Source of the DNA: Chitinophagaceae bacterium
GTDB lineage: Bacteria > Bacteroidota > Bacteroidia > Chitinophagales > Chitinophagaceae
Direction: 5' to 3'
DNA: 64,000 nt
Assembly (NCBI GenBank): GCA_044227095.1
Contig: JBGAFV010000001.1
Location: 1,625,127 to 1,689,126 of the forward strand
The notes under the pieces were generated by a model. That model did not search any database, was not told where the DNA came from, and saw nothing but the letters and a program-made list of their open reading frames with translations. This document shows, piece after piece, positions 5,029 through 42,022 of the stretch (position 1 is the stretch's first letter; each line of letters opens with the position of its first letter). The translations under genes and the position numbers were made by a program.

Positions 5029-5032
5029 TAAA

Positions 5033-5190
5033 GCTGTAGGGGGAGGAGTCGAACCTCCACGGGGCAGTTAGCTATAGCACAAAGTTGAGTGGTCGACCCT
5101 GGTCGAACGAGTATCGCTACCCATTCGGCTCTATGCTACGTTTATCCTGTGACCCCCACCCCCGAGACAAGAGGGCATGTCTGCCAAAGA
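5033..5190 (-). ncRNA. unassigned structured small RNA (~150 nt) with tRNA-like T-arm at its 3' end
   Basis: The 3' end has GGAGG-TTCGACT-CCTCC (canonical T-loop). The 5' region TGTCTCGGGGGTGGGGGTC can pair with the 3' GACTCCTCCCCCTACA. An intrinsic terminator follows immediately, and an AT-rich promoter region lies upstream at 5195-5340. Confidence 0.4.
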
Positions 5191-27317: not shown

Positions 27318-28217
27318 CTAATTAAAGCCTTGCTGGTATTGGCTTTGCAGTTTACCTGCCGCTTCAAAGGCTTTCTCTTTTTTGTTTTTATACCACCATT
27401 CCGGGAAGCTTTTCTTCATTAATGTATCAATATTGCGCATGGCAAAAAGGTTCCAGGCGCCCTTTAATTTTCCACTGAAAGTGTTTTGTAAAGCCCTTAG
27501 GCTCATGGCAAAACCGCTTTCTATATACTCCATATGGTGCCAGTAACCTGCGGGCATAAAAAGTGTATCTCCATGTTCCAGTATAATTTCATAACCCTCT
27601 GCCTGCTCTACGGCCGGGAACTGTACAGTATCCAGCTGACTTTTACCCGGGTCTGCATAATTGGCAAAATTGGCAAAGCTTAATACTTCATATGGTTTGC
27701 GGTAAAGCTTATGCTGCTCTTCATAAGGAAAAAGCAGCACTCTTTTTTTGCCGGCAAACTGTGTGTGCAGAATATGAGAAAGGTCAATATCAAAATGCAT
27801 GTGCGTAATAGAACCCTGGCCACCAGTAAACAACATAGGGAAGCGTTTTACAAAACCATGCATCAGATCATCGGGCCATGAAAAATCTTTTACCAGTTCT
27901 GGTGCATGCTGAAAAATATTGAAAAGAAAAATGCGCAGTTCAACAGGGCCTTGCTTAATCATGTCCAGGTATTCTCCAAACTTCATATAACCATCAGCTT
28001 TATTTATTGGTGTATAGGCATCGCTCTTTACATTATCGTATACACCAACTTTTGTGTTGCCGGTTACTTCTTTAAAATAATCCCAGTTCCATTTATGGTA
28101 AGCAGGCCATTGTTTTGCCAGTTCTGTAATTACAACAGGCTTCATAGTGTTGTAATATTTTTCCCTGAAGATTGCAGGTTCAATACTGGAGACTTTATCA
28201 ACCGGTCTTAAATTCAT
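27318..28217 (-). CDS. cupin-like/JmjC-domain protein
   Basis: HxD...H core (ITHMHFDID ... HHMEY) in a double-stranded beta-helix. Typical of Bacteroidota 'cupin-like domain' proteins. Confidence 0.65.
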   Translation of the reverse strand: MNLRPVDKVSSIEPAIFREKYYNTMKPVVITELAKQWPAYHKWNWDYFKEVTGNTKVGVYDNVKSDAYTPINKADGYMKFGEYLDMIKQGPVELRIFLFNIFQHAPELVKDFSWPDDLMHGFVKRFPMLFTGGQGSITHMHFDIDLSHILHTQFAGKKRVLLFPYEEQHKLYRKPYEVLSFANFANYADPGKSQLDTVQFPAVEQAEGYEIILEHGDTLFMPAGYWHHMEYIESGFAMSLRALQNTFSGKLKGAWNLFAMRNIDTLMKKSFPEWWYKNKKEKAFEAAGKLQSQYQQGFN

Positions 28218-28526
28218 GCTTTCAGAATTTAAAGCAAATTTAGTATGAATTGGATGTTAACAGAACCCAGTTTGAATTTTTTAACTACTGCATGTATTGA
28301 ACAGTATAATTTTTAGGTAACCAGCAGTAGTAACGCTATTCAACTTTGCTTGCCCACCCGGATGAACAAACAAAAATATTTTTTTCCGTTCGGACGGGCG
28401 TCGCACACTTCAACTATTGCTGCACACGTGATCTTTTCTTTTTTTAATTAAGCAATATTATCTGTAAAAATTATTTTCTTTAAGAGCATTATCTAACAAC
28501 TGGTATTTTATGTTTAATTTACAAGC

Positions 28527-29150
28527 ATGTTGTTACAGGTTCACCCGGATAATCCGCAACCAAGAAACATAAGAATGATTATAGACTGTTTGCTTAGTGG
28601 CGGTATTATTATTTATCCAACAGATACTATTTACGGTTTGGGTTGCGATATTTTTCAGCATAAAGCTATTGAACGTATTTGCCAGATAAAAAATGTTGAT
28701 CCAAAAAAAGCGCAGCTTTCATTTGTTTGTCACGATTTGAGTGATCTTAGCAAATACACAAAAAGTATTTCAACACCTTTATACCGGATGCTTAAAAATT
28801 ATCTACCCGGTCCGTATACATTTATATTACCTGCCAGTAAAGAAGTGCCTAAAATTTTAAAAAGTAAAAAAGATACTATTGGCCTGCGCATACCAAAAAA
28901 CAATATTGCCTGGACCATTATTAAAGAATTGCAACACCCGGTATTAAGCACATCACTACCCGGGCAAAACGTAGAAGAGTATACAGATCCTGAAATTATT
29001 TATGCTAATTTTAAAAATGTAGCAGACATTGTAGTAGATGGTGGCATAGGAGGGATAGTGCCTTCTACAATTGTAGATTGTACTGCAGAACCGCCATTGC
29101 TGGTAAGACAAGGACTAGGTGTTTGGACGGATGAAGAAGAACACAATTAA
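28527..29150 (+). CDS. tsaC: L-threonylcarbamoyladenylate synthase (YrdC/Sua5 family)
   Basis: YPTDTIYGLGCD...IGLRIP...STS. Confidence 0.8.
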   Translation: MLLQVHPDNPQPRNIRMIIDCLLSGGIIIYPTDTIYGLGCDIFQHKAIERICQIKNVDPKKAQLSFVCHDLSDLSKYTKSISTPLYRMLKNYLPGPYTFILPASKEVPKILKSKKDTIGLRIPKNNIAWTIIKELQHPVLSTSLPGQNVEEYTDPEIIYANFKNVADIVVDGGIGGIVPSTIVDCTAEPPLLVRQGLGVWTDEEEHN

Positions 29151-29159
29151 TTAAATTTT

Positions 29160-29765
29160 ATGCAGAAAGAATACGCAAAATTTTTTAAAGACACATTGGT
29201 ATTGGAAACCACAAGGGTGATGCTGCGCTTAATGCAGCCATCAGATATGGAAGCATTGTTTTCTATTGCAGGCCCCGATGAAATTTGGAAATACTTTACG
29301 TTTGAACTAAATAAAAAAGAAGAGCTGCTGCAATGGATGGATACGGCAATGCGTGAAAGGGAAGAGGGCAAACGCATGCCTTTTGTTATTGTTGATAAAA
29401 GCACTGATAAAGTTTGCGGCTGCACCAGCTTTGGTAATATTTCTTTTTACGACAAAAGAATAGAAATAGGCTGGACATGGCTCGGCACTGCCACTATGGG
29501 CACAGGTATTAACCACCATGCAAAATTTGTTTTGCTCTGTTATGCATTTGATGCCATGGGTTTTGAACGTGTAGAAATAAAAACCGATAACCTTAATGAA
29601 CGTGCAAAAAAAGCACTGGTGCATATTGGCGCAAGAGAAGAAGGTGTGTTGCGCAGCCATATGCTAATGCCGCATGGCCGCCGGAGGGACAGTGTTTATT
29701 ATTCTATATTGAAAGAAGACTGGGAGACGATTAAGATGTTGTATTTTTCTGATGTTGCTGGATAA
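29160..29765 (+). CDS. GNAT-family N-acetyltransferase (RimJ/RimL-like)
   Basis: IGWTWLGTATMGTGINHHAKFVLLCYAFDAMGFERVEIKTD is the acetyl-CoA binding motif A/B region. Confidence 0.7.
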   Translation: MQKEYAKFFKDTLVLETTRVMLRLMQPSDMEALFSIAGPDEIWKYFTFELNKKEELLQWMDTAMREREEGKRMPFVIVDKSTDKVCGCTSFGNISFYDKRIEIGWTWLGTATMGTGINHHAKFVLLCYAFDAMGFERVEIKTDNLNERAKKALVHIGAREEGVLRSHMLMPHGRRRDSVYYSILKEDWETIKMLYFSDVAG

Positions 29766-29821
29766 TAAAAAATTATACCCGTAGTTTTTTAAAACTACGG
29801 GTATGCATGATTAAAACTCAT

Positions 29822-31267
29822 TTATTCACCTTCCACTGCATTTTTTTCTTTCTTCCATGATCTGTGTTTGGCGCCATCCATCTTTACAATTTTTGGCGTA
29901 AACCTTCCTACAATGTCTACCAAGGATTTCTGAGATTGCATTACTACTTCAATATCCTTGTACGCAAAAGGCGATTCGTCTAATCCGCCACCAAGCAGTT
30001 TTACACCAAACTTTTTCAGTTCGTCTTTAAACTGTTTATCTGTTACAGATGCAATGGCACGTGTACGGCTCATTTTTCTTCCTGCACCATGCGATGCAGA
30101 ATTTACAGATGCAGCCTCTCCTTTACCTTTTACAATAAAACCATCTGCCGTCATAGAACCAGGTATAATACCTAATACATCTTTGCCTGCAGGTGTAGCA
30201 CCTTTACGATGAACAATCACATCACGCCCTTCCCATTTTTCTTTCCACGCAAAGTTGTGGTGGTTTTCTACCATCTTCATTGCTTTACGCCCTAATTGTT
30301 TGGCTATCTTGGCATGTATTACATGATGACATGCAGAAGCGTAATCACCCGCAAGGTTCATCGCATTCCAGTATTCTATACCTTCTTCTTCATCTAAACT
30401 TAACCATGCAAGGTTTTTTGCTTCTTGTGGTAAACGTCTTTTGCTAATAGCCAACTTTGTATAGTGGTTAGCAATGTTTGCACCCAATGCCCTGGAACCA
30501 GAATGCGTTAGAAAACCAACATACTTTCCTGCACTAATACCAAGCATTGCATCTTTTTCTGCCACTTCAATAATACCAAACTCAGCAAAGTGGTTACCAG
30601 AACCAGAAGAACCCAATTGTTTCCATACACGGCCATGCATTTTCTTAAGCAATGGCAATTGGTAAAACAGTTCATTGTCCATCACTTCATGATCAGCTGC
30701 TCTATCAAACTGCGCACCGCTTCCAAATAATGTGGCTTCACTTAATTCTCTCGCAAAAAATGCTTCCTTGTCTGTAAGATCTTTTGGGTTGATATCAAAA
30801 ATACTTAAACACATTCTGCAACCAATATCCACGCCTACTCCATAAGGAATAACCGAGTTCTCTGTCGCCAGCACTCCACCTATCGGTAATCCATAGCCGC
30901 TGTGGGCGTCTGGCATTAATGCACCGGCTATACTCACGGGAAGTTTTGCTGCCTGGTACATCTGGTGCATAGCGCCTTCTTCAATATGTTCCTGCCCAAA
31001 TACATTAAACTGTATACCGTTTTGGTTCAGCGATATTTCTGCACCCTCTGTTGCAGCCTTAGGTATTAATTGCTGCGCAATCAAACCCAGCACAGCATCA
31101 TTTTCATATTCTACCGGCGCAGCCAGTATTTTTTTTAATAGTTCCATCACTTCTTCTTTTCCACTGTGTTTATAATTCTTTTCCATCACATTCATAGCAA
31201 TGCTTACTACCGGTCCTTCCGGGAAGCCAATTGCCCTGATTTCTTTTCCTGATATTTTTAGTTTCAT
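29822..31267 (-). CDS. rtcB: RNA-splicing ligase RtcB (3'-phosphate/5'-OH RNA ligase)
   Basis: Full-length 481 aa. Metal and GTP-binding motifs PDAHSGYG, GSGNHF, NHHNFAW, SHGAGR and the catalytic His region are present. Confidence 0.9.
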   Translation of the reverse strand: MKLKISGKEIRAIGFPEGPVVSIAMNVMEKNYKHSGKEEVMELLKKILAAPVEYENDAVLGLIAQQLIPKAATEGAEISLNQNGIQFNVFGQEHIEEGAMHQMYQAAKLPVSIAGALMPDAHSGYGLPIGGVLATENSVIPYGVGVDIGCRMCLSIFDINPKDLTDKEAFFARELSEATLFGSGAQFDRAADHEVMDNELFYQLPLLKKMHGRVWKQLGSSGSGNHFAEFGIIEVAEKDAMLGISAGKYVGFLTHSGSRALGANIANHYTKLAISKRRLPQEAKNLAWLSLDEEEGIEYWNAMNLAGDYASACHHVIHAKIAKQLGRKAMKMVENHHNFAWKEKWEGRDVIVHRKGATPAGKDVLGIIPGSMTADGFIVKGKGEAASVNSASHGAGRKMSRTRAIASVTDKQFKDELKKFGVKLLGGGLDESPFAYKDIEVVMQSQKSLVDIVGRFTPKIVKMDGAKHRSWKKEKNAVEGE

Positions 31268-31410
31268 ACCCCAACCCCTAAAGGGGCTATTTAAGTTTTA
31301 ATAATATTTTTTTTGATACCAGCATTTGTTTTCATGGCGGCATCGTTGTGTCACTCACTTGTATAGTAAATCAATTATCAACGCAGACACTTAAATTAAT
31401 AATCATTTTT

Positions 31411-31447
31411 ATTAACATCCGGCATCCTGTTAATGCCGGATGTTAAT
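31411..31447 (-). promoter_or_regulatory. 14-bp perfect inverted repeat immediately after the SPFH stop codon, upstream of rtcB
   Basis: ATTAACATCCGGCAT-cctgtta-ATGCCGGATGTTAAT. It is not followed by a clean U-tract, so it may be an attenuator or processing/regulatory hairpin between the SPFH gene and rtcB. Confidence 0.4.
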
Positions 31448-32554
31448 TTAACCATTCTTATTTGCCGGTACAAAGATCTGCTTCAACTGTTCTACCAAAG
31501 CACCGTTGCCACTTACACTGATATTACTGATTTTATCTGCAATCTTCTCTACGTATTCCATCTCTTTCAATTTCCACAACATCGCATTTTCTTCCATCAA
31601 TTTAGCAGTGTTTAGCAAACTACGGGTGCTGGCTGTTTCTTCACGGCGCATGATTGTATTTGCCTGCGCTTTCTTTTCTGCAATCAATACCTGGTTCATA
31701 ATCTCTTTCACATCGCCCGGCAAAATAATATCGCGTATACCAAAGCCGGTTACTTCCACACCCAATGCTGCAGCTTCGGCTTTTGCCCGCTGCAATATAT
31801 AAGGTGCGATGGTTTCTTTTTTTTCCAGCAATTCATCAAAGCTGAAACCGGCAATGTATTCACGCAAAGCCAATTGAAAGGCTACATACAATTGCTTGTC
31901 ATAGTCTTTGTTTTGCAACAAAGCTTTTTCAATGTCAGCCACTTTGTATTGCGCCCATGCATTAATACGCAAAGCCGCTTTGTCTTTGGTCAGGATTTCC
32001 TGGCCGTTTACTTCCAGTTGCTGCTGACGGATATCAACTTTGCCTACATGAATAGCGATGCTGTTCTTCCACCATGTATAAATGCCACTTTGCAAGGTTT
32101 GCACATACTTACCGTCTACAAACAATAGTGCTTTTTCATAACTCTCTACACTATAAGTACGCACATAGCCAATTACAGGCCGGCTCAACAAAACAGTGCG
32201 ATCAATGTTTTCAGTGATCTCAATCTTACTGATGTCTGCATGTACAAATTGGTAGTCAATCATTCCCTTCCAATATGTATAACGGCCGGCATTCAATACT
32301 AGCTTCAGCAAACCATTTTCGTATTGCAAAACAATTTCATTGTCTTTTACATCCACTACATGCAATGCATCAGCCAGCATAGTATCTTGCAAAAGAATAT
32401 TCAGTTCTATAGGAGCAACAAATGGTTTATTCAAGTCATAAACGATGGCTGTTTCATTCCACAACCAGTATTTACCTTCTTTCAGCATTCGCTGATAAGT
32501 TCCATTCTTAAACACCAAACCAACCTGGTAGGCATTTACTTTTACCTGTTTCAT
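31448..32554 (-). CDS. SPFH/band-7 (slipin/prohibitin-like) domain protein
   Basis: Band-7 core ...GFGIRDIILPGDVKEIMNQVLIAEKKAQANTIMRREE... plus an N-terminal extension. The start is at MKQVKV. Confidence 0.7.
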   Translation of the reverse strand: MKQVKVNAYQVGLVFKNGTYQRMLKEGKYWLWNETAIVYDLNKPFVAPIELNILLQDTMLADALHVVDVKDNEIVLQYENGLLKLVLNAGRYTYWKGMIDYQFVHADISKIEITENIDRTVLLSRPVIGYVRTYSVESYEKALLFVDGKYVQTLQSGIYTWWKNSIAIHVGKVDIRQQQLEVNGQEILTKDKAALRINAWAQYKVADIEKALLQNKDYDKQLYVAFQLALREYIAGFSFDELLEKKETIAPYILQRAKAEAAALGVEVTGFGIRDIILPGDVKEIMNQVLIAEKKAQANTIMRREETASTRSLLNTAKLMEENAMLWKLKEMEYVEKIADKISNISVSGNGALVEQLKQIFVPANKNG

Positions 32555-32937
32555 TTTCTTATATTTAAAGTTTTCAATTATTTGTAAAAAAGTCAGCACT
32601 GCCTGCACTCCGTAATCACGGAAGCGGGTTTTAGAAAATGTTTTTTGTAACAGTTTACCAGGGAGTGTTCGCCTGATAAAGTGAAACGAGCTGCATTCCT
32701 GCTGCCAGCCTGCAGATGCTTACTGAGTTGCACACTTCCAAAACTTTCCCTGTCAAAAAAGGTACTCGTTCTTTCAAGTCTTTCTTGCTGCATTGATGCA
32801 GCAAAAAAGAGTCATAGGCCGTGTGCCCGCAGGCAGCACCAACTTTTTTTATCTGGTCACCTTTTTTAAGAAGCGGTGGACTTCTCCTTTTGAAGCATTA
32901 TCAGTGCTTTGCTAGACCATTTAGCTTCACCGCCAAA

Positions 32938-33052
32938 GGCGATGACAGGATTCGAACCTGCATATTTCTGTTGCTCTACCACTGAGCTATTCCGTTTGCA
33001 ACGGAAAGAGGAATTGAACCCCTGACCCACAGGTTATGGAGGGCATTGCACC
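32938..33052 (-). ncRNA. candidate tRNA-mimic ncRNA (YrlA/Y-RNA-like tRNA-like module) upstream of the SPFH-rtcB genes
   Basis: The minus strand reads ...AGGGG-TTCAATT-CCTCT (T-arm) TTCCGTT-GCA-AACGGAA (acceptor-like 7-bp stem closed by a 3-nt loop) TA-GCTC-AGTGGTAGA-GAGC (D-arm with G18G19)... The ends GGTGCAATG / CATCGCC can pair. There is no anticodon arm. A second T-arm-like hairpin CAGG-TTCGAAT-CCTG lies near the 3' end. Confidence 0.45.
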
Positions 33053-33230
33053 ATTGAAATAACAGCATACAGAAAGTTTACTAACTCTGCACTATGGTGT
33101 TTTTGAAACACACATCCGGTTTACTGTCAACAGGCAGTTGCCCTTCTTGCCGTTAAGCAAGCTTTTGTGTTGAACTAGTCAACAATTTATTTATCTAAAG
33201 AATTTTCGGAGCATTGTATTATGGAAGAAG

Positions 33231-33962
33231 TTAATCATCCAGCCTATCCAAAATCTGCGGTAGCGGAATATTGTACAATGGATTTCTTTCCCTGTCTCTT
33301 TGTTCCCTGTAGCGCCATTTGTAACTATCACCTAAAATTTTAGCCTGACGTGCGTCATACTTATTCCATTCAAGGTAATTGCTAATTTCTTCGAGGCGTT
33401 TTTCAATGTCCACATCTTTTATCTTGATTTTATCAATTATGTTTGGACTTACACGCAATACAAAACGCCAGGGCTCATTAAAGACATATCTTTTAACCGG
33501 TTGCTTTTTCCAGTCATGCTCCCAAACCTCATGAAAACATTGCATTTCGCTATCAGAAAAGGCAAACCTTTTAAGCTCATATGAATATGGCTTTAGCAAC
33601 TGCTGCCCTTTAATAACATAGATCTTCCTTCCATACTTTCTTTTCCTGATGCGGAAGTCTTTTCTGTAACTCCAGGCGCTGGTATTTATTTTTTTCAAAA
33701 TAGCCTCAAAGAACTCTGCCTGTTTGCTTCTTGCTACGTCATCACGTAAAACAAAACAACGTTTCCATCCTTTTTGTACAGGTGGCAATAAGGGTTCCCA
33801 ACCTAAATTATTTTTTCTTGCCCACAACCCACGTTGTTCTTTCCATAATTGAATCAACTGTTTATCAAAATCTTTATACTGCATTCTTTTTTTCTGCCTG
33901 GCAGTACGCAGGCGGTAGCAGAGAATATCTTCTCCGTGCTGTTGAATAAGTTTTGTGTCCAT
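33231..33962 (-). CDS. hypothetical basic protein (243 aa, R/K-rich), no recognisable domain
   Basis: Clean ORF and ATG start. Its 5' UTR contains a D-arm-like hairpin GGTGCAATGGCACC (33990-34010). Confidence 0.5.
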   Translation of the reverse strand: MDTKLIQQHGEDILCYRLRTARQKKRMQYKDFDKQLIQLWKEQRGLWARKNNLGWEPLLPPVQKGWKRCFVLRDDVARSKQAEFFEAILKKINTSAWSYRKDFRIRKRKYGRKIYVIKGQQLLKPYSYELKRFAFSDSEMQCFHEVWEHDWKKQPVKRYVFNEPWRFVLRVSPNIIDKIKIKDVDIEKRLEEISNYLEWNKYDARQAKILGDSYKWRYREQRDRERNPLYNIPLPQILDRLDD

Positions 33963-34102
33963 AATGATTTATTTGGTTTCGATCGGTAACTCCGGTGCCA
34001 TTGCACCATTCCTTTCCGTATTGTCATTATGAACCCTGAAGTTTTTTTCATTTCGCTAAGGTTATTTTAATAAATTATTTTTAATCTTTCAGAAAGCTCG
34101 TT

Positions 34103-34588
34103 TCACTGCACCACTTTATTAGCACAGCTAGAACTTGCAAATGCTTCTGGCTTGGCTTTAAAAGCAAAACCCATCCCCATTATATAACCCATCGCTTCTT
34201 TCAAAGCATCATTGCTTTTAAAATTTGGATTGGTGTTGATATCGGCATGTACTTCCATTTCTACATCATATAAAGTGAATAGCCTGCACAATTCATAGGC
34301 AATGTCAATACTCTTCGATACTTCCAGCAACATCCTTTGCTTTATGCTCATCTTCTGTTGCGTAACTTCATTGCTGATATACATGAAACCACCTTTTCCT
34401 TTTCTTATAAAAACAATTACGGTTGCAAATTCTGTTTCCCGCCCTTTAACCTGGCTATCGGTACCAATACATACTTTCAAATCATTGCCCAATTGTTTTT
34501 CACGAACAATAGCCGAACGCACTTCATCAACAATAGATTGCTGCAACCTTTGTCCGTTCAGTTTTCTCCATTTTTGTTGCTGTTCCAT
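34103..34588 (-). CDS. YkuK/DUF458-family RNase H-like protein
   Basis: IGTDSQVKGRETEFATVIVF...NTNPNFKSNDAL resembles the DUF458 predicted RNase-H-fold nuclease. The start is at MEQQQKW, and the longer upstream extension overlaps tRNA-Phe. Confidence 0.5.
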   Translation of the reverse strand: MEQQQKWRKLNGQRLQQSIVDEVRSAIVREKQLGNDLKVCIGTDSQVKGRETEFATVIVFIRKGKGGFMYISNEVTQQKMSIKQRMLLEVSKSIDIAYELCRLFTLYDVEMEVHADINTNPNFKSNDALKEAMGYIMGMGFAFKAKPEAFASSSCANKVVQ

Positions 34589-34604
34589 TGTTTTGTTTTT
34601 AATG

Positions 34605-34679
34605 TGGTGCCTTAAGGAATCGAACCTTAATTGCTGGTTCTTCAAACCAGTGCAATAGAACCATCTCTGCCAAAGCACC
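34605..34679 (-). tRNA. tRNA-Phe (GAA)
   Basis: Manual fold: acceptor GGTGCTT/AGGCACC, D-arm GCAG...TTGC, anticodon stem CTGGT/ACCAG with loop TTGAAGA, T-arm TAAGG-TTCGATT-CCTTA, discriminator A. Confidence 0.7.
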
Positions 34680-34684
34680 ATTTT

Positions 34685-34776
34685 GTCTGAACCAGGATTT
34701 TGAAGGATTTTTTGGATTAATAGGATGTACACTTCTCTGCTAAATCTTTTAAATCATTTTAAATCCTGGTTTAGAT
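34685..34776. repeat. ~95-bp palindromic unit immediately 5' of tRNA-Phe (family also at 35110-35204, 35465-35637, 13040-13080)
   Basis: Terminal inverted repeats GTCTGAACCAGGATTTTGAAGGATTT ... AAATCCTGGTTTAGAT. Confidence 0.6.
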
Positions 34777-34876
34777 TTTTTTTGTTATTAACTGTAGTAA
34801 CACTATTAAGCATCGTTGCGTCGCACACTTCAGCTTTTTGTTATTTATTCATCATATCTCCCAATATAGTCTTCTT

Positions 34877-34948
34877 GCGGATGAAGAAAGGTTCGAACTT
34901 TCAACCTGGGGCTTAACAAGCCACTGCTCTGCCATTGAGCTATTCATC
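34877..34948 (-). tRNA. tRNA-Asn (GTT)
   Basis: Manual fold: acceptor GGATGAA/TTCATCC, D-arm GCTC-AATGGCA-GAGC, anticodon loop TTGTTAA (one mismatch in the anticodon stem), T-arm GAAAG-TTCGAAC-CTTTC, discriminator G. Confidence 0.6.
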
Positions 34949-34951
34949 CAT

Positions 34952-35025
34952 GAGTCGCGCAGAAGATTCGAACTTCTTTATTCCGGTTTGCAGCCGGATG
35001 CATACAGCCATGTCTGCCAGCGCGA
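34952..35025 (-). tRNA. tRNA-Cys (GCA), unusual D-arm
   Basis: Acceptor GTCGCGC/GCGCGAC, anticodon stem TCCGG/CCGGA with loop CTGCAAA, T-arm AGAAG-TTCGAAT-CTTCT, discriminator T. The D-region is 21 nt with a non-canonical stem. Confidence 0.55.
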
Positions 35026-35033
35026 CTTTTATT

Positions 35034-35109
35034 GTTGGCCCGGTGAGACTCGAACTCACAACTCCCGGTGTAAAAGACCGGTACTCTGCATCCAATTGAG
35101 TTACGAACC
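35034..35109 (-). tRNA. tRNA-Lys (TTT)
   Basis: Acceptor TGGTTCG/CGGGCCA (two G-U pairs), D-arm ACTC...GAGT, anticodon stem CCGGT/ACCGG with loop CTTTTAC, T-arm GTGAG-TTCGAGT-CTCAC, discriminator A. Confidence 0.65.
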
Positions 35110-35204
35110 AGTGTCTGAACCAGGATTTTGAAGGATTTTTCAGATTAATAAGATGTAAATTTTTCTGACGAATCTTTTTAATCCTTTTAAATCCTGGTTC
35201 AGAT
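35110..35204. repeat. ~95-bp palindromic unit immediately 5' of tRNA-Lys
   Basis: GTGTCTGAACCAGGATTTTGAAGGATTT ... AAATCCTGGTTCAGAT. It is ~85% identical to the 34685-34776 unit. Confidence 0.6.
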
Positions 35205-35211
35205 ATTTTTT

Positions 35212-35306
35212 GTACGACTTTCAGAATCGAACTGAATACGCCAAACTTATGTTTACCTCTCAGAAAGAGCAGGAAGCTTAGCATGTTGCCATTACACCCA
35301 GCCGTA
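35212..35306 (-). ncRNA. 95-nt tRNA-like element with canonical acceptor, D-arm and T-arm but no anticodon stem-loop (tRNA pseudogene or tRNA-mimic RNA)
   Basis: Acceptor TACGGCT/AGTCGTA, D-arm GTGT-AATGGCA-ACAT, T-arm TTCAG-TTCGATT-CTGAA. The 46-nt internal segment contains no 5-bp/7-nt-loop anticodon arm in any register (checked manually). Confidence 0.4.
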
Positions 35307-35309
35307 TTG

Positions 35310-35381
35310 GTTGACTTCGGGACTTGAACCCTGTTCTTCACATTCACAGTGTGACACTTTACCAGTTAAGCTAAAGCCAAC
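35310..35381 (-). tRNA. tRNA-His (GTG)-like, with G-1:C73 and irregular T-arm
   Basis: G-1 + TTGGCTT / AAGTCAA + C73 gives the 8-bp His-type acceptor. D-arm GCTT-AACTGGTA-AAGT, anticodon stem TCACA/TGTGA with loop CTGTGAA. The T-stem has only 3-4 bp (GGG-TTCAAGT-CCC). Confidence 0.5.
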
Positions 35382-35386
35382 GTTTG

Positions 35387-35459
35387 TTGTTAAGGATAGA
35401 TTCGAACTATCATCATCAGTGTCAAAGACTGATATGCTGAGCCATTGCACCACTTAACA
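35387..35459 (-). tRNA. tRNA-Gln (TTG)
   Basis: U1-A72 acceptor TGTTAAG/CTTAACA, D-arm GTGC-AATGGCTCA-GCAT, anticodon stem TCAGT/ACTGA with loop CTTTGAC, T-arm GATAG-TTCGAAT-CTATC. Confidence 0.7.
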
Positions 35460-35464
35460 ATTTG

Positions 35465-35637
35465 TCTTAACCACGATTCATAAGATTTATGGGATTGATA
35501 CGATATGTCTAACTAATCTTTTCAATCATTTTTAATCCCAGTTCAGACATTTTTCATATTTGGTTTAATGGTTCTGCACTCAATTTTTTTATTTAATCCT
35601 GACAATCCGTTTAATCTTACAAATCATGGTTCAGACA
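35465..35637. repeat. two degenerate copies of the tRNA-upstream palindromic unit, 5' of tRNA-Gln
   Basis: ...AATCTTTTCAATCATTTTTAATCCCAGTTCAGACATTTTT... and ...AATCCTGACAATCCGTTTAATCTTACAAATCATGGTTCAGACAATTTT. Confidence 0.45.
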
Positions 35638-35892
35638 ATTTTGGAAAAGCATCCCCGCTGCATCTCGCGGGGAGTGCTTATGTTCCTCCTTTCTGCAACT
35701 AATGATTTAGCCTCCTCCCGACCTCCTCCAATAGAGGAGGCCATCAACGCACAAGGCCAGCTTTTCACAAAGCCATAATTATTTTATTCTTTTTTTATCA
35801 ATTTACTGATCAGTTGAAGGGCAAACCGCATCATAAATACCATCACTATAAATTTCATTATGCCTGTTTTATATTTTTATAAAAGCGGGCAT

Positions 35893-35927
35893 AAAAAAAC
35901 CCGGTCGTTTTTTGCGACCGGGTTTTT
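35893..35927. terminator. bidirectional intrinsic terminator-like hairpin in the 1-kb non-coding region
   Basis: AAAAAAACCCGGTCG-ttttttg-CGACCGGGTTTTT. Confidence 0.5.
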
Positions 35928-36206
35928 ACGTTCAGCTGTGTAACACAGCTAATCATTACAATACCACGGTCGTATATTTTTATTATTTCTTTGCTCACCT
36001 ATGAGCATAAAACTCCTGCCTGTTTGCGCATACCAATAACATCCTGCTAATGTCAGCAGATTGTTGCTTGTCAGAATTATAAATCGTTTATGTTGTTTAT
36101 TTTTCGACATTTATATTTTTAAGTTTATAATTTTTTTATCACAGACCACTAAAAATCCTATCCTTCCAGGATATTTTTTCTCCCTTTCAGGGGTTGGGGT
36201 AACAAA

Positions 36207-36243
36207 TAAAAAACCCCGCAATCTCTTGCGGGGCTTATATTTC
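36207..36243 (-). terminator. intrinsic terminator-like hairpin (stronger on minus strand)
   Basis: CCCCGCAAtctcTTGCGGGG with a T-run on the minus strand. Confidence 0.45.
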
Positions 36244-36499
36244 AGCGATTTTGTTTTTCAACTAATCTGCAGCACTACATGCCCCGCGAACGCTATAGTC
36301 TCCTTTGGGACTAAAGCCATTCAGTGATTCAATATGTATCATTGCGGTGCGCTGCATAAATTTATTTTACATCGCAAAGATGCAATTATTTTTTTGATAC
36401 TGCCAAATGTTTTTATAAAAATTTTTAAAATAAATTTTTTATATGCGTGCAGTAGTATAAAATGAAAGTAGAATTATAAGGAGCGTAAAGAAAAGTTGT

Positions 36500-37216
36500 T
36501 TATGGAAACATAGCTTCTGCTATTGCAACGGATTCTGGTTTTCCTACATCAGAAAATTTATCACCGGTATGATCGTAGCCAAGTATAAGATGATCTTTTG
36601 CAAGGGAAAGATAAGTTTCTACAAGTGAGAACTTTCCGCGTTGTGGGATGAGCGAAAAAATTTTTGGTTCAAAAACAACAACACAGCTGTAAGCTCTTTC
36701 TACCAATTTCTTTTTTGGAATAGCAATAATTTCATCTTCCGTTTTTTTATTGCGCCAGCCACAAAGCCGATCGTATTCATCAAATAAAAAATAACGAGAT
36801 GTTTTTCTGTTGGTTACTGCAAATGAAATAAGTGGTTTGTAATCTTTATGATAGTCTATTAATCTTTTAAGACTAAGATCGGTAAGTATATCTGCATTGA
36901 TGGTTACAAAAGGTTCGTCTCCTTCCAACAAAGGCCTTGCTTTTAATAAGCCGCCACCGGTTTCCAATACTTCATTGGTTTCATCGCTGATTATAATTTT
37001 ACTTCCCCAACCATCATTTTGTTTTACTGCGTCTATAATTTGATCTGCAAAATGATGCACGTTTACTACTACTTCAGTAATTCCATATTTCTGAAGGTAT
37101 TCAATGTTTCTTTGTAATAAGCTTTTTCCGTTTACTAGTGCAAGCGCTTTTGGATGTGTATCTGTCCAGGGTTTAAAACGTGTACCCAGGCCCGCCGCGA
37201 AAATCATTCCTTTCAT
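36500..37216 (-). CDS. sugar-1-phosphate nucleotidyltransferase (MurU-like MurNAc-alpha-1-P uridylyltransferase)
   Basis: MKGMIFAAGLGTRFKPWTDTHPKALALVNGKSLL is the NTP-transferase G-loop. It is adjacent to an anomeric sugar kinase-like gene, as in the amgK-murU recycling pair. Confidence 0.7.
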   Translation of the reverse strand: MKGMIFAAGLGTRFKPWTDTHPKALALVNGKSLLQRNIEYLQKYGITEVVVNVHHFADQIIDAVKQNDGWGSKIIISDETNEVLETGGGLLKARPLLEGDEPFVTINADILTDLSLKRLIDYHKDYKPLISFAVTNRKTSRYFLFDEYDRLCGWRNKKTEDEIIAIPKKKLVERAYSCVVVFEPKIFSLIPQRGKFSLVETYLSLAKDHLILGYDHTGDKFSDVGKPESVAIAEAMFP

Positions 37217-37230
37217 ATTGTTTTATTTAT

Positions 37231-37427
37231 GGAACGCTGATTTTTATGATTGTTAAGATGAACTATGATTTACTTCGTGCCAGTACTTAATTTGCGAATC
37301 TGCGCCCAAGGTTTTTTTCAATAGCGATTTGTTGTACAAGTGAGTGACACAACAATGTTTAATAGCGAACTGCTGCCTGCCAAACAAAAAATCTTACTAA
37401 TCATAATCATCATAAAAATCTGCGTTC
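37231..37427. repeat. MITE-like element with GGAACGCTGATTTTTATGATT / ATCATAAAAATCTGCGTTC terminal inverted repeats enclosing a TTGTTGTACAAGTGAGTGACACAACAA palindrome
   Basis: Located between the MurU-like and kinase genes. Both end modules match the 12771-12852 element. Confidence 0.5.
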
Positions 37428-37452
37428 TATTCTTCAAATGCGAAGCATGCAT

Positions 37453-38958
37453 TTAATTCACCCAGTTTTTTTCATCCTGCACTTTATGGTGCAATGCTAC
37501 TTTTACTTTAAACTTATTTTTTAAATGCCTGGCCAATGCATCTGCGGCATAAACGCTACGGTGCTGTCCGCCAGTGCACCCAAAATTTATAATCAAATGA
37601 CTGAAATCTCTTTTAATGTAGTCGGCTACAGAAATATCCACTATGTCAAAAACACTATTGAGAAAATCTGGCATTTTGGTACGCTGTTCTAAAAAATCTT
37701 TTACTGGTTTATCCCTACCGGTTAATTTTTTGTATTCATCAAAACGACCGGGGTTGAGTATACCACGACAATCAAACACAAAGCCGCCGCCGTTGTCTGT
37801 TTCATCGTGCGGAATTCCTTTGCGGTAAGAAAAACTGTTTATCTCTACTACTAAAGGTGTTTTTTCGGTTGCCTGCAAAGGCTCGAACCTATTAATTACT
37901 TCATCGGTTACACAAAAGCGCAGGCATTTTTCAAAAGTAGGCACGGCTATACCCATGCGTTGGTTTTCTGTAAGCGATTTTAGATTGCGCAAAGCCAACG
38001 GTATGCTGGTAAGAAAGTGCGCCTTTCTTTCAAACAAGCCACGAAACCCGTACGCTCCCATTACTTGTAAAAGCCGTATCAGCACATAGCCATTATACTG
38101 TGCAATAAAAATATTTTTATCTGCAGGGGTTTCCAGTAATTTATTGGCTTCATCAATGTAATATTCAAGTAAACCTGTTTTCCATTCTTCCGGTAATTCT
38201 GCTCTTGCCTGCCATAGCAATGAAGCCACATCGTATTGTAAAGCGCCACGCATACCTCCCTGGTAATCTATAAAATGAACTTTATCGTCCTTCACCATTA
38301 CGTTCCTGCTTTGAAAATCGCGGAACATAAAATGTTTATTCTCTGTATGCGTAAGATAATTGCTCAACGCTTCAAAGTCATCTAGCAATGCCTGTTTATC
38401 ATAAGCATATTTAAGTGTGTCAAGAAAATAATATTTAAAATACAATAGATCGGAAAGGATGGCCTGCTTGCCAAACTCTTTTGCAGTGAGGCTATAGTTA
38501 TAATCAATACCATTGCCGCCTTTAATTTGCAGCCATGCAAGATTTTTCAGGCTTTGCTGAAACAAGCTGTACACATAATCATTATAACCATGTTCTTCCA
38601 GTTTGTTTAATAGTGAAGTATCGCCAAAATCTTCCTGTATATAAATTGTGTGTGCATCGTTTACACAGAATATTTCAGGAACTGAACAACCATTTTTTTT
38701 AAAATACCTGCTGAAGTAGATAAAGGTTTCGTTCTCTTTAATATTGTGTCCGTATGTAGCAATATAAGTTTTTGTGCCTGTGTTGATACGGTAATAAATT
38801 CTGTCGCTGCCCGACTGTGGTATTTTTTCAACGTCAGAAACTGGTTCATTCCTGGTAGTGGCAAACAATGCTTTAATGTCTTCTGTAATCTGCTGCATGA
38901 AAGTAAAAATAAAGTAAATTTTTATGACATTGTGGGCTCGTTTATAATGCCCCTGCAC
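37453..38958 (-). CDS. phosphotransferase (APH/AmgK-like sugar kinase) fused to a RapZ-like C-terminal domain
   Basis: The N-terminal two-thirds has kinase-fold motifs (Brenner-like HRDFQSRNVMV, DxxGG region IDYQGG). The C-terminal ~130 aa has GCTGGQHRSV, which resembles the RapZ/YhbJ C-terminal domain. The start is probably at MQQITED. Confidence 0.6.
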   Translation of the reverse strand: MQGHYKRAHNVIKIYFIFTFMQQITEDIKALFATTRNEPVSDVEKIPQSGSDRIYYRINTGTKTYIATYGHNIKENETFIYFSRYFKKNGCSVPEIFCVNDAHTIYIQEDFGDTSLLNKLEEHGYNDYVYSLFQQSLKNLAWLQIKGGNGIDYNYSLTAKEFGKQAILSDLLYFKYYFLDTLKYAYDKQALLDDFEALSNYLTHTENKHFMFRDFQSRNVMVKDDKVHFIDYQGGMRGALQYDVASLLWQARAELPEEWKTGLLEYYIDEANKLLETPADKNIFIAQYNGYVLIRLLQVMGAYGFRGLFERKAHFLTSIPLALRNLKSLTENQRMGIAVPTFEKCLRFCVTDEVINRFEPLQATEKTPLVVEINSFSYRKGIPHDETDNGGGFVFDCRGILNPGRFDEYKKLTGRDKPVKDFLEQRTKMPDFLNSVFDIVDISVADYIKRDFSHLIINFGCTGGQHRSVYAADALARHLKNKFKVKVALHHKVQDEKNWVN

Positions 38959-39151
38959 CTACTGTAAAGTTTACGGCAGTTAAAAGCGTTCATTTCATTT
39001 ATAGGAGTTATATTTGACAAACAGAGAGCTTCGCCATCACTAAATTGTTACCTTTTTATTACGTCATTTTTAATTTAGGGTACATCCATTTTATTTTTAA
39101 ATGAGCCGGCTGTAATGCAGCTGCCCATATATAATCACCAAAACAGCGTTT

Positions 39152-42022
39152 ATGAAGCTACACAAATCTCTCATGGTTATTGTGATGATGCTTATTTCTT
39201 CACAACTCCTCTTTTCACAAAAACAAACTATTACCGGTAAGGTAACAGATGCCAAAACTGGTGAACCAATCAGTGGTGTATCTGTAAAGATTAGGGCCAC
39301 AAAAACAGGAACAGTTACCAACAAAGAAGGTGTGTTTACTATTTCTGCTGCACCCAATGATGTGCTGGAAATAAGTTCTGTTGGTTTTAAAACAGAAACT
39401 GTAACACCAAATGGCCAAACAAACATTTCAATTAATCTTGCAGCTGCTTCATCGGAATTAACGGAAGTAGTATTTGTGGGCTCTCGTGGTGCTGCAAGGG
39501 CAAAAATTGAAACGCCTGTTCCTGTAGACGTTATTAAAATAAACCAGGTAGGATTGCCAACAGCTAAAATGGATCTTACTTCTGTATTAAATTATGCTGC
39601 CCCTTCTTTTAACTATAACAAACAGAGCGGTGCCGATGGTGCAGACCACGTTGATTTGGGCACACTAAGAGGCCTTGGCCCAGACCAAACATTGGTTCTT
39701 ATTAATGGCAAAAGAAGACATCAAACAGCTTTTGTTGGATTGTTTGGTACAAGAGGCCGTGGAAATTCTGGTGTTGACTTAAATGCTTTTCCTGAAGCCT
39801 CAGTAGATCGCATAGAAATATTAAGAGATGGTGCTTCTGCACAATACGGTTCGGATGCAATGGCCGGCGTTATCAATATCATTCTTAAAAAAGACATTAA
39901 CCACTGGACGATTAATACAGGTTGGAGCGGTTATTACGATACAAAGAATAACGCAAGAAAATACAATGCAGGCAATCAATATTACTCCGGCAATGCTGTT
40001 GATGGCAATACTTTCACATTGTCTGTTAACAATGGATTTGCTATTGGTAAAAATGGCGGGTTTGTAAATATCTCTGCAGATTTTTTAAAACAAGGGAAAA
40101 CATACAGGCAGGCAGATACTACCAATTACCAGCTTAATAAAAATTCATTGCCTTATTTAAATACAGGTCGCAGGGCTTTTGGGGATGGTTCTATTACTAC
40201 TAGTGGTATTATGTACAATATGGAAATACCTTTTAGTGCTTCTGGCAAGACAAGTTTTTATTCTTTTGGCGGATATAATTATAAGTCGTCTGATGCTTAT
40301 GCATATTCCCGTAATTACAGCGCCAAGCCAGAACGTTTTCCTGTAAATTCTAATGGTACTTTAATAAATGCCCCTGACATTTTACGTACAGCAAATGATG
40401 GTGAAATTTATTACAACCCGCATATACAAACACATATACAGGACATATCATTAGCACTGGGTGTAAAAGGAGATGCAGGTAATGGATGGGGTTGGGATTT
40501 GAGCAATACAATTGGAAGAAATGATTTTCATTATTATGGTGATAAAACATTCAATGCTTCTAATGTAGGAAAAGCAACACCTAACCATTTTGATGATGGT
40601 GGTTTCAATTTTTTACAAAATACTACCAACTTAGATTTTAATAAAACATTTAAATCTGTTGGACAGGGTTTGAATCTTGGACTTGGAGCAGAATTCAGGT
40701 ATGAAAGATATTCAATTTACCAGGGGGAAGATGCTTCTTACAAAAGCCTTACCAATCAGCAAATCATTTATCCCAACCAGGTAGGAACGGGTAATTATGA
40801 TTCATTGAGATCCCCAGCAGCGGGATCGCAAGGGTTTCCTGGTTTTAGCAATACAGATGCTGTAGCAGCAAACCGTACCAACTTTGCATTATATGCAGAT
40901 GCGGCGCTTGATGTAACAAAAGAATGGTTGCTTGATGGAGCTGTTCGCTTTGAAAACTATTCAGACTTTGGTTCTGTATTAACCGGCAAACTGGCTACAC
41001 GTTATAAAGTTGCCGACAACTTTAATATAAGAGGTTCTGTAAGCACTGGCTTTAGGGCGCCATCTTTACAGCAAATACATTTTAGCAACACACTTACATC
41101 ATTTAGCGGTGGTAAACTTGTGCAATCTCTTATTGCACCAAATACCAGCAGCATTGCAAAAGCTGCGGGCATCCCGGATTTAAAAGAAGAAACATCAATA
41201 AACGGAAGCCTTGGTTTTTCTTGGAAAGTAACAAAAGAATTTACACTTACACTTGATGGCTATATTGTTAAAGTAAAAGACAGGATTGTGCTTTCTGGTT
41301 TGTTTAGCAAAGACGATCCAACACTGCCTCCTTCATTTACTTCGCAATTCCCATCAGATGTAGCTACTGCACAATTCTTTGCTAATGCAGTAAGCACAAC
41401 CAATTATGGACTTGACATTGTGGCCGACTACACACACAGGTGGAACAAAAACACTATCAAAATTTTATTAGCCGGAAACCTCCAGCATGTAAATATTGAT
41501 GACATTCATATTCCATCTGCGTTAAGCGATAGCAAACTTCATCAGAAAACATTTTATAGCGACAGGGAAGAAGCTTTCTTAAAAGCATCAGCACCTAAAG
41601 CTAAATTCTCTCTTGGTATTGATTATACAAAAGATAAATTAGGCTTTGGCGCACACTTTACCTACTATGGAAAAATTGTGTTACTTGGCTTTGGTGATTC
41701 TAATGCACCTTCTGGCGATAACCCTAATGGTTCTGGTATAAACCCGCAGGTGCCCAGTGATGCAGATGGAAATGTGTATGTTCCGGAAGTGTTTAATTAC
41801 AATGCTAAAGTAACTACAGACATTTATGCATCATACAAACTCTGCAAAAGAGCAACGTTGTTTATTGGTGCAGATAATATATTTAATGTGCACCCTAACC
41901 TTGGTGTAAACCCGCTTGCAAAAGGATGGGCTGGTGATAATGAAAGTGGTGGCCCATGGGATTCTGTACAAATGGGTTTTAATGGAAGAAGATTGTTTGG
42001 CAAACTTGCATTTAGTTTCTAA
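39152..42022 (+). CDS. TonB-dependent outer-membrane receptor (CarboxypepD_reg + plug + 22-strand barrel)
   Basis: Signal peptide. ITGKVTDAKTGEPISGVSVKI is CarboxypepD_reg. The TonB box/plug region is EVVFVGSRG...DRIEILRDGASAQYGSDAMAGVINIILK. C-terminal aromatic ...LAFSF. No SusD partner. Confidence 0.85.
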   Translation: MKLHKSLMVIVMMLISSQLLFSQKQTITGKVTDAKTGEPISGVSVKIRATKTGTVTNKEGVFTISAAPNDVLEISSVGFKTETVTPNGQTNISINLAAASSELTEVVFVGSRGAARAKIETPVPVDVIKINQVGLPTAKMDLTSVLNYAAPSFNYNKQSGADGADHVDLGTLRGLGPDQTLVLINGKRRHQTAFVGLFGTRGRGNSGVDLNAFPEASVDRIEILRDGASAQYGSDAMAGVINIILKKDINHWTINTGWSGYYDTKNNARKYNAGNQYYSGNAVDGNTFTLSVNNGFAIGKNGGFVNISADFLKQGKTYRQADTTNYQLNKNSLPYLNTGRRAFGDGSITTSGIMYNMEIPFSASGKTSFYSFGGYNYKSSDAYAYSRNYSAKPERFPVNSNGTLINAPDILRTANDGEIYYNPHIQTHIQDISLALGVKGDAGNGWGWDLSNTIGRNDFHYYGDKTFNASNVGKATPNHFDDGGFNFLQNTTNLDFNKTFKSVGQGLNLGLGAEFRYERYSIYQGEDASYKSLTNQQIIYPNQVGTGNYDSLRSPAAGSQGFPGFSNTDAVAANRTNFALYADAALDVTKEWLLDGAVRFENYSDFGSVLTGKLATRYKVADNFNIRGSVSTGFRAPSLQQIHFSNTLTSFSGGKLVQSLIAPNTSSIAKAAGIPDLKEETSINGSLGFSWKVTKEFTLTLDGYIVKVKDRIVLSGLFSKDDPTLPPSFTSQFPSDVATAQFFANAVSTTNYGLDIVADYTHRWNKNTIKILLAGNLQHVNIDDIHIPSALSDSKLHQKTFYSDREEAFLKASAPKAKFSLGIDYTKDKLGFGAHFTYYGKIVLLGFGDSNAPSGDNPNGSGINPQVPSDADGNVYVPEVFNYNAKVTTDIYASYKLCKRATLFIGADNIFNVHPNLGVNPLAKGWAGDNESGGPWDSVQMGFNGRRLFGKLAFSF

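Follow-up and report, generated by a model that had tools for sequence, protein, structure and literature searches.

Long arrays of tRNA genes (L-arrays) are known in Bacteroidetes, and in Anabaena translational stress induces them together with rtcB, as set out in passages of PMC8421152. In the keyword-searched passages of that paper, the array members described are decoding tRNAs or undetected pseudogenes, and a conserved member in which a selected arm replaces the anticodon was not found. Separately, Band-7 and RtcB genes have been linked to a predicted "b7a-tRNA" that is interchangeable with the Y RNA YrlA (Burroughs & Aravind 2016, as cited in bioRxiv 10.1101/312249). Here, we analyzed a 64,000-nucleotide (nt) stretch of DNA from Chitinophagaceae bacterium (NCBI GenBank assembly GCA_044227095.1, contig JBGAFV010000001.1, forward-strand positions 1,625,127 to 1,689,126), referred to below as the window, with positions counted from its first letter. 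Within a tRNA array on the minus strand of the window, upstream of Band-7 and RtcB genes, lies a 95-nt tRNA-like element (35212-35306) that has an acceptor stem, a D-arm, and a T-arm, and a long arm where the anticodon arm should be. The element belongs to a previously unannotated, conserved family of tRNA-derived non-coding RNA. No description of it was found in Rfam 15 or in the full-text literature searched, in which Burroughs & Aravind 2016 was represented only by citation.

YrlA (RF02553) and the element are alike in being tRNA mimics with real D- and T-arms and an L-shape (bioRxiv 10.1101/312249, PMC4201824). Both lack an anticodon loop, both have an extended "anticodon stem" that is kinked in YrlA and probably kinked in the element, and both occur in an RtcB neighborhood. 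However, YrlA is circularly permuted, with its acceptor stem closed by a loop and its 5' and 3' ends located in the extended anticodon stem that binds Rsr/Ro60. The element lacks this permutation: its acceptor end is free and of the tRNA type, its distal hairpin is closed, and its place is in a tRNA array. RF02553 does not match it. The b7a-tRNA, going by its citation, resembles the element as a tRNA-like non-coding RNA near Band-7 and RtcB genes. By the same cited description, the b7a-tRNA of the window is probably a T-arm-less RNA at 32934-32871 that adjoins the Band-7 gene. That RNA has an anticodon arm, whereas the element, 2.6 kb away from Band-7, has kept the T-arm and is without an anticodon loop. 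As far as can be judged from a b7a-tRNA known here only by citation, the two are distinct. As for the L-arrays of PMC8421152, in the parts of that paper covered here, the element is an array member in the same sense, and the arrays of its relatives hold up to 16 tRNA genes.

More distant parallels are found outside these neighborhoods. The tRNA-like domain of transfer-messenger RNA (tmRNA) and the tRNA-Other of Bacillus cereus also have an acceptor/T-arm module, stand outside ordinary decoding, and are processed by tRNA enzymes. tmRNA differs from the element in lacking a D-stem and carrying an mRNA module, tRNA-Other differs in keeping an anticodon-type arm, and the CCU/AGG hairpin and A-bulge of the element are in neither. 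In the "tRNA scaffolds" that Ponchon and Dardel reportedly designed in the laboratory, a cargo RNA takes the place of the anticodon arm, the anticodon stem runs on into a foreign structured hairpin, and the tRNA body gives processing and stability. The element has the same architecture and appears to be a natural, evolutionarily maintained counterpart.

Read on the minus strand from 35306 to 35212, the RNA is UACGGCU GG GUGU-AAUGGCA-ACAU G CUAAGCUU CCUGCUC-UUUCU-GAGAGG UAAACAU AAGUUUGG CGUA UUCAG-UUCGAUU-CUGAA AGUCGUA C. Its parts are listed here, with alignment columns given as window positions counted from 35306.

35212-35306, minus strand: whole 95-nt tRNA-like element, anticodon-less and long-armed (sequence reading; covariance model R1, 97 bits; homologs)
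35300-35306, minus strand: 5' strand of the acceptor stem, UACGGCU, with invariant U1 (partner 35213-35219; compensatory changes in 5 of 7 pairs)
35213-35219, minus strand: 3' strand of the acceptor stem, AGUCGUA (pairing test on the alignment)
35283-35297, minus strand: D-arm, GUGU-AAUGGCA-ACAU, with invariant G18 and G19 (columns 10-24; stem near-invariant, 93.8% paired)
35274-35281, minus strand: 5' strand of the proximal stem of the replaced anticodon arm, CUAAGCUU (partner 35241-35248; compensatory changes in 6 of 8 pairs)
35241-35248, minus strand: 3' strand of the proximal stem, AAGUUUGG (pairing test and RNAalifold)
35256-35273, minus strand: distal hairpin, CCU(G)CUC-UUUCU-GAGAGG (columns 34-51; 6-bp stem, three inner pairs covarying)
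35249-35255, minus strand: asymmetric 3'-side bulge, UAAACAU, holding a CAU relic (columns 52-58; unpaired in the hand-drawn and RNAalifold structures)
35237-35240, minus strand: short variable loop, CGUA (columns 67-70; compared with tRNA-Met sequences)
35220-35236, minus strand: canonical T-arm, UUCAG-UUCGAUU-CUGAA (columns 71-87; compensatory changes in 3 of 5 pairs; T-loop UUCRA conserved, as UUCRAnU)
35212, minus strand: invariant discriminator C, which is A in the tRNA-Met of the arrays (column 95; C in 17 of 17 genome copies and 44 of 44 aligned metagenome copies)

The acceptor stem (columns 1-7/88-94) begins with a near-invariant U1-A72 pair. A reading made earlier from the sequence alone had proposed a 7-bp acceptor, a D-arm, a T-arm, and 46 nt between the two arms without an anticodon loop, placed between tRNA-His and tRNA-Lys. 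All of these are present, on the minus strand, between tRNA-His(GUG) at 35381-35309 and tRNA-Lys(UUU) at 35110-35034. The arm that replaces the anticodon arm is about 14 bp overall, with a 21- to 22-nt insertion at the former anticodon site. In its proximal stem (columns 26-33/59-66, 6-8 bp), pairing is kept and sequence varies, as seen from CUAAGCUU/AAGUUUGG in the window versus UUCACUC/GGGUGAA in the related locus L009. The CCU/AGG of the distal stem is invariant in all 17 genome copies. The distal pentaloop is U-rich and reads UUUCU in the majority of copies, or YUUUCUR counting the closing pair. Only the window copy has the bulged G in the distal stem. The A-rich 3'-side bulge is 6-7 nt long with the consensus N-A-A-R-Y-A-K, in which two A's are invariant. 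The variable loop is 4-5 nt long, and its GU is invariant across the element family and not in tRNA-Met. Some copies carry insertions elsewhere, namely a 13-nt hairpin in the D-loop of the L010 ortholog (5027-5133) and about 20 nt in the T-loop of two metagenome copies (L062, L067).

We used 26 aligned homologs of a 243-amino-acid protein encoded downstream of the array to fetch 45 related genome loci, the majority of which have a same-strand array upstream. An nhmmer search with the 95-nt element gave full-length matches in 16 independent loci of those 45 (E 3.6e-13 to 4.3e-6), and comparison with related arrays thus places the element in related genomes. Candidate cultivable carriers among these are Terrimonas rubra KCTC 23299 (L021), Terrimonas sp. 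NS-102 (L005), Foetidibacter luteolus YG09 (L028), and Ferruginibacter sp. SUN106 (L016). The 17-sequence alignment has a mean column identity of 81% and 30 invariant columns. With the hand-drawn cloverleaf and long arm, 94.4% of cells in the 17 sequences are paired, versus 36-46% when the partners are slid by 1-3 columns. Compensatory double changes occur in 17 of 30 pairs, and none of 500 shuffles equaled the observed values. These changes fall in the acceptor (5/7), proximal (6/8), distal (3/6), and T (3/5) stems, while the D-stem barely varies; the remaining three distal-stem pairs are the invariant CCU/AGG. RNAalifold, unguided, returned the same fold from the alignment. Folding of the single window sequence recovered the acceptor stem, the T-arm, and the long central helix with z = -1.93 versus shuffles. 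Since this energy is only 1.9 standard deviations below shuffles, thermodynamics alone proves nothing.

Covariance model R1 scored the 17 members at 84.7-106.7 bits and ordinary tRNAs from 46 sources at no more than 48.9 bits. In metagenome contigs, we found at least 71 further full-length members (44 + 27) at 78-108 bits among the 120 motif matches listed; the remaining matches inspected were unrelated sequence. Together with the 17 genome copies, the total is at least 88. Among the 44 metagenome copies that were aligned, 95.9% of cells are paired, with 17 compensatory pairs, and slid controls over both alignments gave 36-49%; because the metagenome alignment is model-fitted and the hairpin was in the search pattern, independent evidence there comes from the backbone and the proximal stem alone. 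The element can be aligned end to end across genera, while the flanks beyond the neighboring tRNAs are not conserved and the linked 243-amino-acid proteins of element-bearing genera are only 50-60% identical. Searches of 50,697 phage records, by megablast with the array and by blastn with the element, gave no match, and a motif scan of IMG/VR viral contigs did not find the element. A phage origin was rejected on the basis of these null searches. Rather than a tRNA or a pseudogene, the element is very probably a functional, structured tRNA mimic.

The element has the canonical features of a tRNA body, including the 7-bp acceptor, the D-arm with G18G19, and the T-arm with a UUCRA loop, and its acceptor and T stems covary. 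It also has the setting of an L-array member, in a same-strand, head-to-tail cluster with spacers of 3-6 nt. Standard tools do not recognize it. ARAGORN at default settings called the element in the window as neither tRNA nor tmRNA, and all 4227 Rfam models run at E ≤ 10 gave no tRNA (RF00005), tRNA-Sec (RF01852), tmRNA, or YrlA (RF02553) match on it. The sole Rfam overlaps at that threshold were spurious microRNA and small RNA matches centered on an adjacent palindrome. RF00005 also did not match the orthologs at E ≤ 0.001, and ARAGORN gave the orthologs varying isotypes (Met, Ala, Gly, Arg) or none. The possibility, raised with the sequence-only reading, that a tRNA finder would recognize a valid long-arm tRNA in the window was thus not borne out, and neither was the absence of the element from relatives. 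In no register across the family did we find a 5-bp anticodon stem with a 7-nt loop, U33, a conserved anticodon, and a purine at 37. Instead, the would-be anticodon-loop positions are Watson-Crick paired and covary. The earlier claims that the anticodon arm is missing and that the RNA cannot decode both hold across the family, in which a covarying long arm supplants the anticodon loop and no anticodon is conserved.

The backbone of the element points to its parent. After its own members, the next-best matches of model R1 are the tRNA-Met(CAU) genes of the arrays. Between the L011 element and tRNA-Met, the T-arm is identical, the D-arm has 2 differences, and each acceptor strand has 2 differences. 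In an ungapped comparison over 53 backbone positions, tRNA-Met ranked first in 8 of the 12 arrays having one (mean 32.3/53). Val, Gln, and Trp tRNAs scored close behind, which makes Met ancestry probable and not certain. The backbone is thus probably derived from the class-I, elongator-type tRNA-Met(CAU) of the arrays. About half of the family, including the window copy, keeps CU...CAUAA around the insertion (class A), and the other half has UAGCRG in its place (class B). The class A pattern would be the remainder left by a 21- to 22-nt insertion next to C34 of a CUCAUAA loop. The positions that are new relative to the parent tRNA and invariant are C73, the variable-loop GU, CCU/AGG, and the AA bulge.

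Small hairpin insertions are also seen in other array tRNAs of relatives, such as GC-rich palindromes in a tRNA-His D-loop and a tRNA-Trp T-loop (L013 5091-5190, L006 5806-5898). At L006 3181-3272, the anticodon loop of a tRNA-Met-like gene is destroyed by an unrelated insertion. The element probably began as a hairpin insertion of this kind that, unlike the one-off insertions, was later fixed and refined.

We propose that the element is a non-decoding tRNA mimic that is processed as a tRNA and serves as a decoy or an adaptor. Taken as a whole, we give this explanation a probability of roughly 45%, and the decoy or adaptor mechanism within it is offered tentatively. Because a long, probably kinked hairpin stands in place of the anticodon loop, the element cannot read codons, and an arm about 9 bp longer than normal would not be expected to reach the decoding center. 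The element would be co-transcribed with the array, cut by RNase P at U1 and by RNase Z after the discriminator C, and given a CCA tail. Processing by RNase P and RNase Z had already been suggested from the sequence; the tight packing of the array fits this prediction, since tRNA-His and the element are 3 nt apart and, in relatives, a gap of about 5 nt separates the element from the tRNA that follows. Methionyl-tRNA synthetase (MetRS) would presumably be unable to charge the element, which has lost both the CAU anticodon and A73, the main determinants of this enzyme. To our knowledge, C73 suits only histidyl-tRNA synthetase (HisRS) among bacterial synthetases, and HisRS needs G-1 too. Of the 17 copies of the element, 16 have A at position -1 and one has C.

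The invariant CCU/AGG, AA bulge, variable-loop GU, and C73 could then form a protein recognition surface on a stable tRNA scaffold acting in trans. In one version, the element would be a pseudo-substrate, decoy, or sponge for a nuclease or modification enzyme aimed at U-rich anticodon loops, acting under translational stress or RNA damage. In the other, it would be a Y-RNA-like adaptor for the neighboring repair proteins. We slightly favor the decoy version. Passages of PMC8421152 propose array tRNAs as sponges for toxin RNases, co-regulated with rtcB. In support of a decoy, the C-UUUCU-G distal loop is near the anticodon loop of the tRNA-Glu(UUC) of the arrays, which is CUUUCUA in 3 of 7 examined. 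The three with this loop are L015 4105-4178, L042 4343-4417, and L023 3345-3418; they have a pyrimidine at 37, which is unusual for a functional tRNA, and recall anticodon-loop variants that escape tRNA nucleases. A decoy would also fit the way the element comes and goes among the arrays without tracking the linked proteins. The precedent for an adaptor is YrlA, which together with the predicted b7a-tRNA is linked to Band-7/RtcB loci (bioRxiv 10.1101/312249), and the cluster in the window holds both a YrlA-like RNA and a T-arm-less tRNA-like RNA.

Several observations weigh against this proposal. For the decoy version, the closing pair of the pentaloop covaries from C-G to U-A, which points to a closed loop of 5 nt and speaks against an open, anticodon-like loop of 7 nt. 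Furthermore, the loop is not strictly invariant, as the variants UUAUU, UUUCC, and UUUUU exist, and the invariant CCU/AGG stem is unlike the anticodon stem of tRNA-Glu. For the adaptor version, 29 of 46 loci with the same protein genes, among them all four from Niastella, lack the element. Those proteins therefore do not strictly require it as a cofactor, and its being dispensable in most of these loci weakens its case as their adaptor. The 243-amino-acid protein, a candidate partner, had no match in Pfam or PDB fold searches. Finally, expression, processing, and binding are all steps that we infer from the sequence.

Other readings of the hairpin and the stems were also considered. A pseudoknot between the pentaloop and the A-bulge was ruled out, as a 1-nt linker would have to bridge a 6-bp stem. 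The purine tract of the T-arm-less tRNA-like RNA was rejected as a pairing partner, its complementarity being non-contiguous. Mimicry of rRNA was rejected for the 3' acceptor strand GAAAGUCGUAC versus 16S rRNA 1491-1501, for the pyrimidine strand versus the 16S 3' tail, and for GAGAGG versus the sarcin-ricin loop, as the positions involved covary or differ in orthologs.

An unlikely alternative is that the element is a regulatory RNA whose pyrimidine strand and loop, CUUCCUYYYUUUCU, base-pair with purine-rich targets, or a tRNA-shaped signal RNA that is cleaved on purpose. The pyrimidine tract and U-rich loop are indeed conserved, and damaged tRNA fragments are known to activate an rtcBA operon in Salmonella (PMC7790460). 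However, the pyrimidine tract is locked in a covarying helix. A search of the window and 167 loci turned up neither a second copy of the hairpin nor a complementary motif. The hairpin motif is present a single time in the window and in each locus, which gives no second copy to serve as an operator in an mRNA leader, and five extra motif matches were unrelated sequences. As for a signal RNA, an RtcR-like regulator was not among the ten open reading frames (ORFs) scanned with Pfam in 27318-42022.

We also think it improbable that the element is an intron-containing pre-tRNA, from which the 21- to 23-nt hairpin plus bulge would be excised and the halves joined by RtcB to give a decoding tRNA, tRNA-Met(CAU) in the class of the window copy. 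RtcB (PF01139) is the tRNA-splicing ligase of archaea and animals, and the backbone is tRNA-Met-like. Class A members minus 21 nt give a perfect UUCAUAA loop on a 5-bp stem, and ARAGORN in intron mode calls L042 and L028 as "tRNA-Met(cat)" with a 21-nt intron. In the same mode at the default threshold, however, the window copy is not called, and the other calls disagree, being Ala(agc) with a 23-nt intron in class B and Gly, Arg, or none elsewhere, with non-canonical and varying intron positions. The would-be anticodons of the orthologs also disagree (CAU, UAU, AAU, CUU, AGC, CGC, UGC, AGA, AGU). With fixed cut sites, class B is left without U33 and with C37. The positions that would become 32:38 and 33:37 covary as Watson-Crick pairs, and the discriminator is C, not the A73 expected by MetRS. 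Like the archaeal and eukaryotic intron-containing pre-tRNAs handled by EndA/Sen and RtcB, the element has an anticodon-loop insertion in a normal body and an RtcB gene near. Unlike them, it has no bulge-helix-bulge motif, its 5' strand being unbulged, and no conserved anticodon or canonical 37/38 position. Additionally, a normal tRNA-Met(CAU) is also present in 12 of 17 element-bearing arrays, and RtcB is often more than 4 kb distant or beyond the fetched flank. We know of no tRNA-splicing endonuclease in bacteria; excision would perhaps fall to a dedicated endonuclease of the cluster, such as the DUF458 RNase H-like protein or the 243-amino-acid protein. Since hand splits of every register and the intron and relaxed modes of ARAGORN give a sensible loop only in class A, we reject splicing as the conserved function. 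If true, RtcB-dependent tRNA splicing would be seen for the first time in Bacteria, and an extra tRNA supply would be gated by the RNA-repair machinery.

We find it very improbable that the element is a dead gene, a tRNA-Met broken by a small palindromic insertion and kept by linkage alone. Such a view could draw on the GC-rich hairpin insertions in D- or T-loops of array tRNAs in relatives, on the disrupted tRNA-Met-like gene at L006 3181-3272, and on the many arrays without the element. It is contradicted by end-to-end alignability across genera in which spacers cannot be aligned and linked proteins are 50-60% identical, by the family of at least 88 copies, and by invariant positions absent from the parent tRNA. 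All helices but the D-stem carry compensatory changes, including three pairs inside the insertion. This covariation in the alignment largely refutes the dead-gene explanation, and conservation across genera together with compensatory changes inside the inserted hairpin overturns the "degenerate pseudogene" that had first been considered.

The companion suggestion of a class II tRNA, or of a tRNA-Sec, folded wrongly in the sequence-only reading, is refuted and has almost no probability: 95 nt is within the length range and ARAGORN gives the L035 ortholog as a 94-nt "tRNA-Arg(tct)", but RF00005 and RF01852 do not match at E ≤ 10, ARAGORN is silent in the window, the acceptor/T geometry is 7/5 and not 8/5, no register across the family gives a 7-nt loop with conserved U33, and the extra nucleotides lie inside the anticodon arm, 5' of a variable region of only 4-5 nt, on a backbone nearest to class-I tRNA-Met(CAU).

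The array and the features downstream of it, on the same strand as the element, are as follows.

35309-35381, minus strand: tRNA-His(GUG) with G-1 and C73 (ARAGORN; Rfam 50.5 bits), 3 nt (CAA) upstream of the element
35114-35204, minus strand: spacer between the element and tRNA-Lys, an imperfect palindrome of about 90 nt, one of two copies of a 102-nt repeat
34588-34103, minus strand: DUF458/RNase H-like gene (PF04308, by Pfam), downstream of the array
33962-33231, minus strand: gene for the 243-amino-acid protein, downstream of the DUF458 gene
33054-32936, minus strand: YrlA-like Y RNA (RF02553, 40.2 bits, E 2.5e-7, below the gathering score of 69)
32934-32871, minus strand: tRNA-like RNA with acceptor stem, D-arm, and anticodon arm (loop CUGAUAA) and 11 nt in place of the T-arm, directly after the YrlA-like RNA

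ARAGORN found six same-strand tRNAs in the window array (Gln, His, a gap holding the element, Lys, Cys, Asn, Phe), and the identical six were found at Rfam gathering thresholds. In every contig examined, the element is inside a tRNA array, mostly right after tRNA-His and sometimes after tRNA-Ile(UAU). It is present in about 16 of 26 long arrays, and it comes and goes as other array members do, not tracking the linked proteins. No correlation was seen in the related loci between the element and particular neighboring genes, or between it and the tRNA-Met or tRNA-Glu of the arrays.

Downstream on the minus strand, the order is array, DUF458, 243-amino-acid protein, YrlA-like RNA, T-arm-less RNA, SPFH/Band-7, and RtcB. 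The YrlA-like and T-arm-less RNAs are 2.2 kb from the element, and the earlier idea that the element might be a second tRNA mimic in the window is supported. YrlA-like matches were present in 5 of 5 related loci scanned. No Rsr (TROVE/Ro60) gene was found among the ten neighboring ORFs scanned with Pfam. For the 243-amino-acid protein, which has no Pfam or PDB fold match, there are about 450 homologs, and virtually all of them come from Chitinophagaceae-like sources. A SusC-type TonB receptor is also near; the window itself is of Bacteroidota origin, with Chitinophagaceae as its closest relatives. On the other side of the array are a gene for an APH-type kinase fused to a RapZ C-terminal domain (37453-38958, minus strand) and then one for an NTP-transferase (36500-37216, minus strand), a pair that resembles AmgK/MurU-like cell-wall recycling. 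This pair is probably unrelated to the array because a terminator-like hairpin (36236-36211) lies between.

The arrays themselves have further peculiarities. The 102-nt spacer unit occurs at 34684-34785 and 35112-35213 with 87% identity, with partial copies at 35515-35554 and 35616-35642. It folds as an imperfect palindrome of about 90 nt (UCUGAACCAGGAUU...AAUCCUGGUUCAGA), with half-sites again upstream of the first tRNA, and L003 and L018 have other long palindromes at the corresponding place. The repeat may serve as an operator or a processing site, or it may be a small mobile element. For almost all array tRNAs, the triplet right after the discriminator is CAA or CAU instead of CCA (window 35307-35309, 35031-35033, 34874-34876, and equivalents). 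This is seen in the window at His (...C-CAA), Lys (...A-CAA), and Asn (...G-CAA), and in relatives also at Met, Gln, Val, and Asp; these triplets may be connected with 3' processing. Additionally, the arrays seem to hold further irregular tRNAs. ARAGORN gave calls with 2- or 4-base "anticodons" (tRNA-???) and a "tRNA-Tyr(ata)" in the usual tRNA-His position (L007 3929-4001, L037 5824-5897, L103 911-983, L027 1572-1657, L038 4960-5032).

The element is a third kind of tRNA mimic in this neighborhood, architecturally distinct, present in at least 88 copies, and clearly under selection. For genome annotation, it means that standard tRNA finders and Rfam overlook the element or give its orthologs differing, wrong isotypes. 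Three questions meet at this locus, namely the purpose of long bacterial tRNA arrays, the true substrate of bacterial RtcB, and why tRNA-shaped non-coding RNAs accompany RNA-repair genes. The invariant hairpin offers a bait for identifying the bound protein. If that partner proves to be a tRNA-directed toxin or a repair factor, a direct test of whether the array acts as a decoy, a replacement pool, or a cofactor could be made in cultivable Chitinophagaceae.

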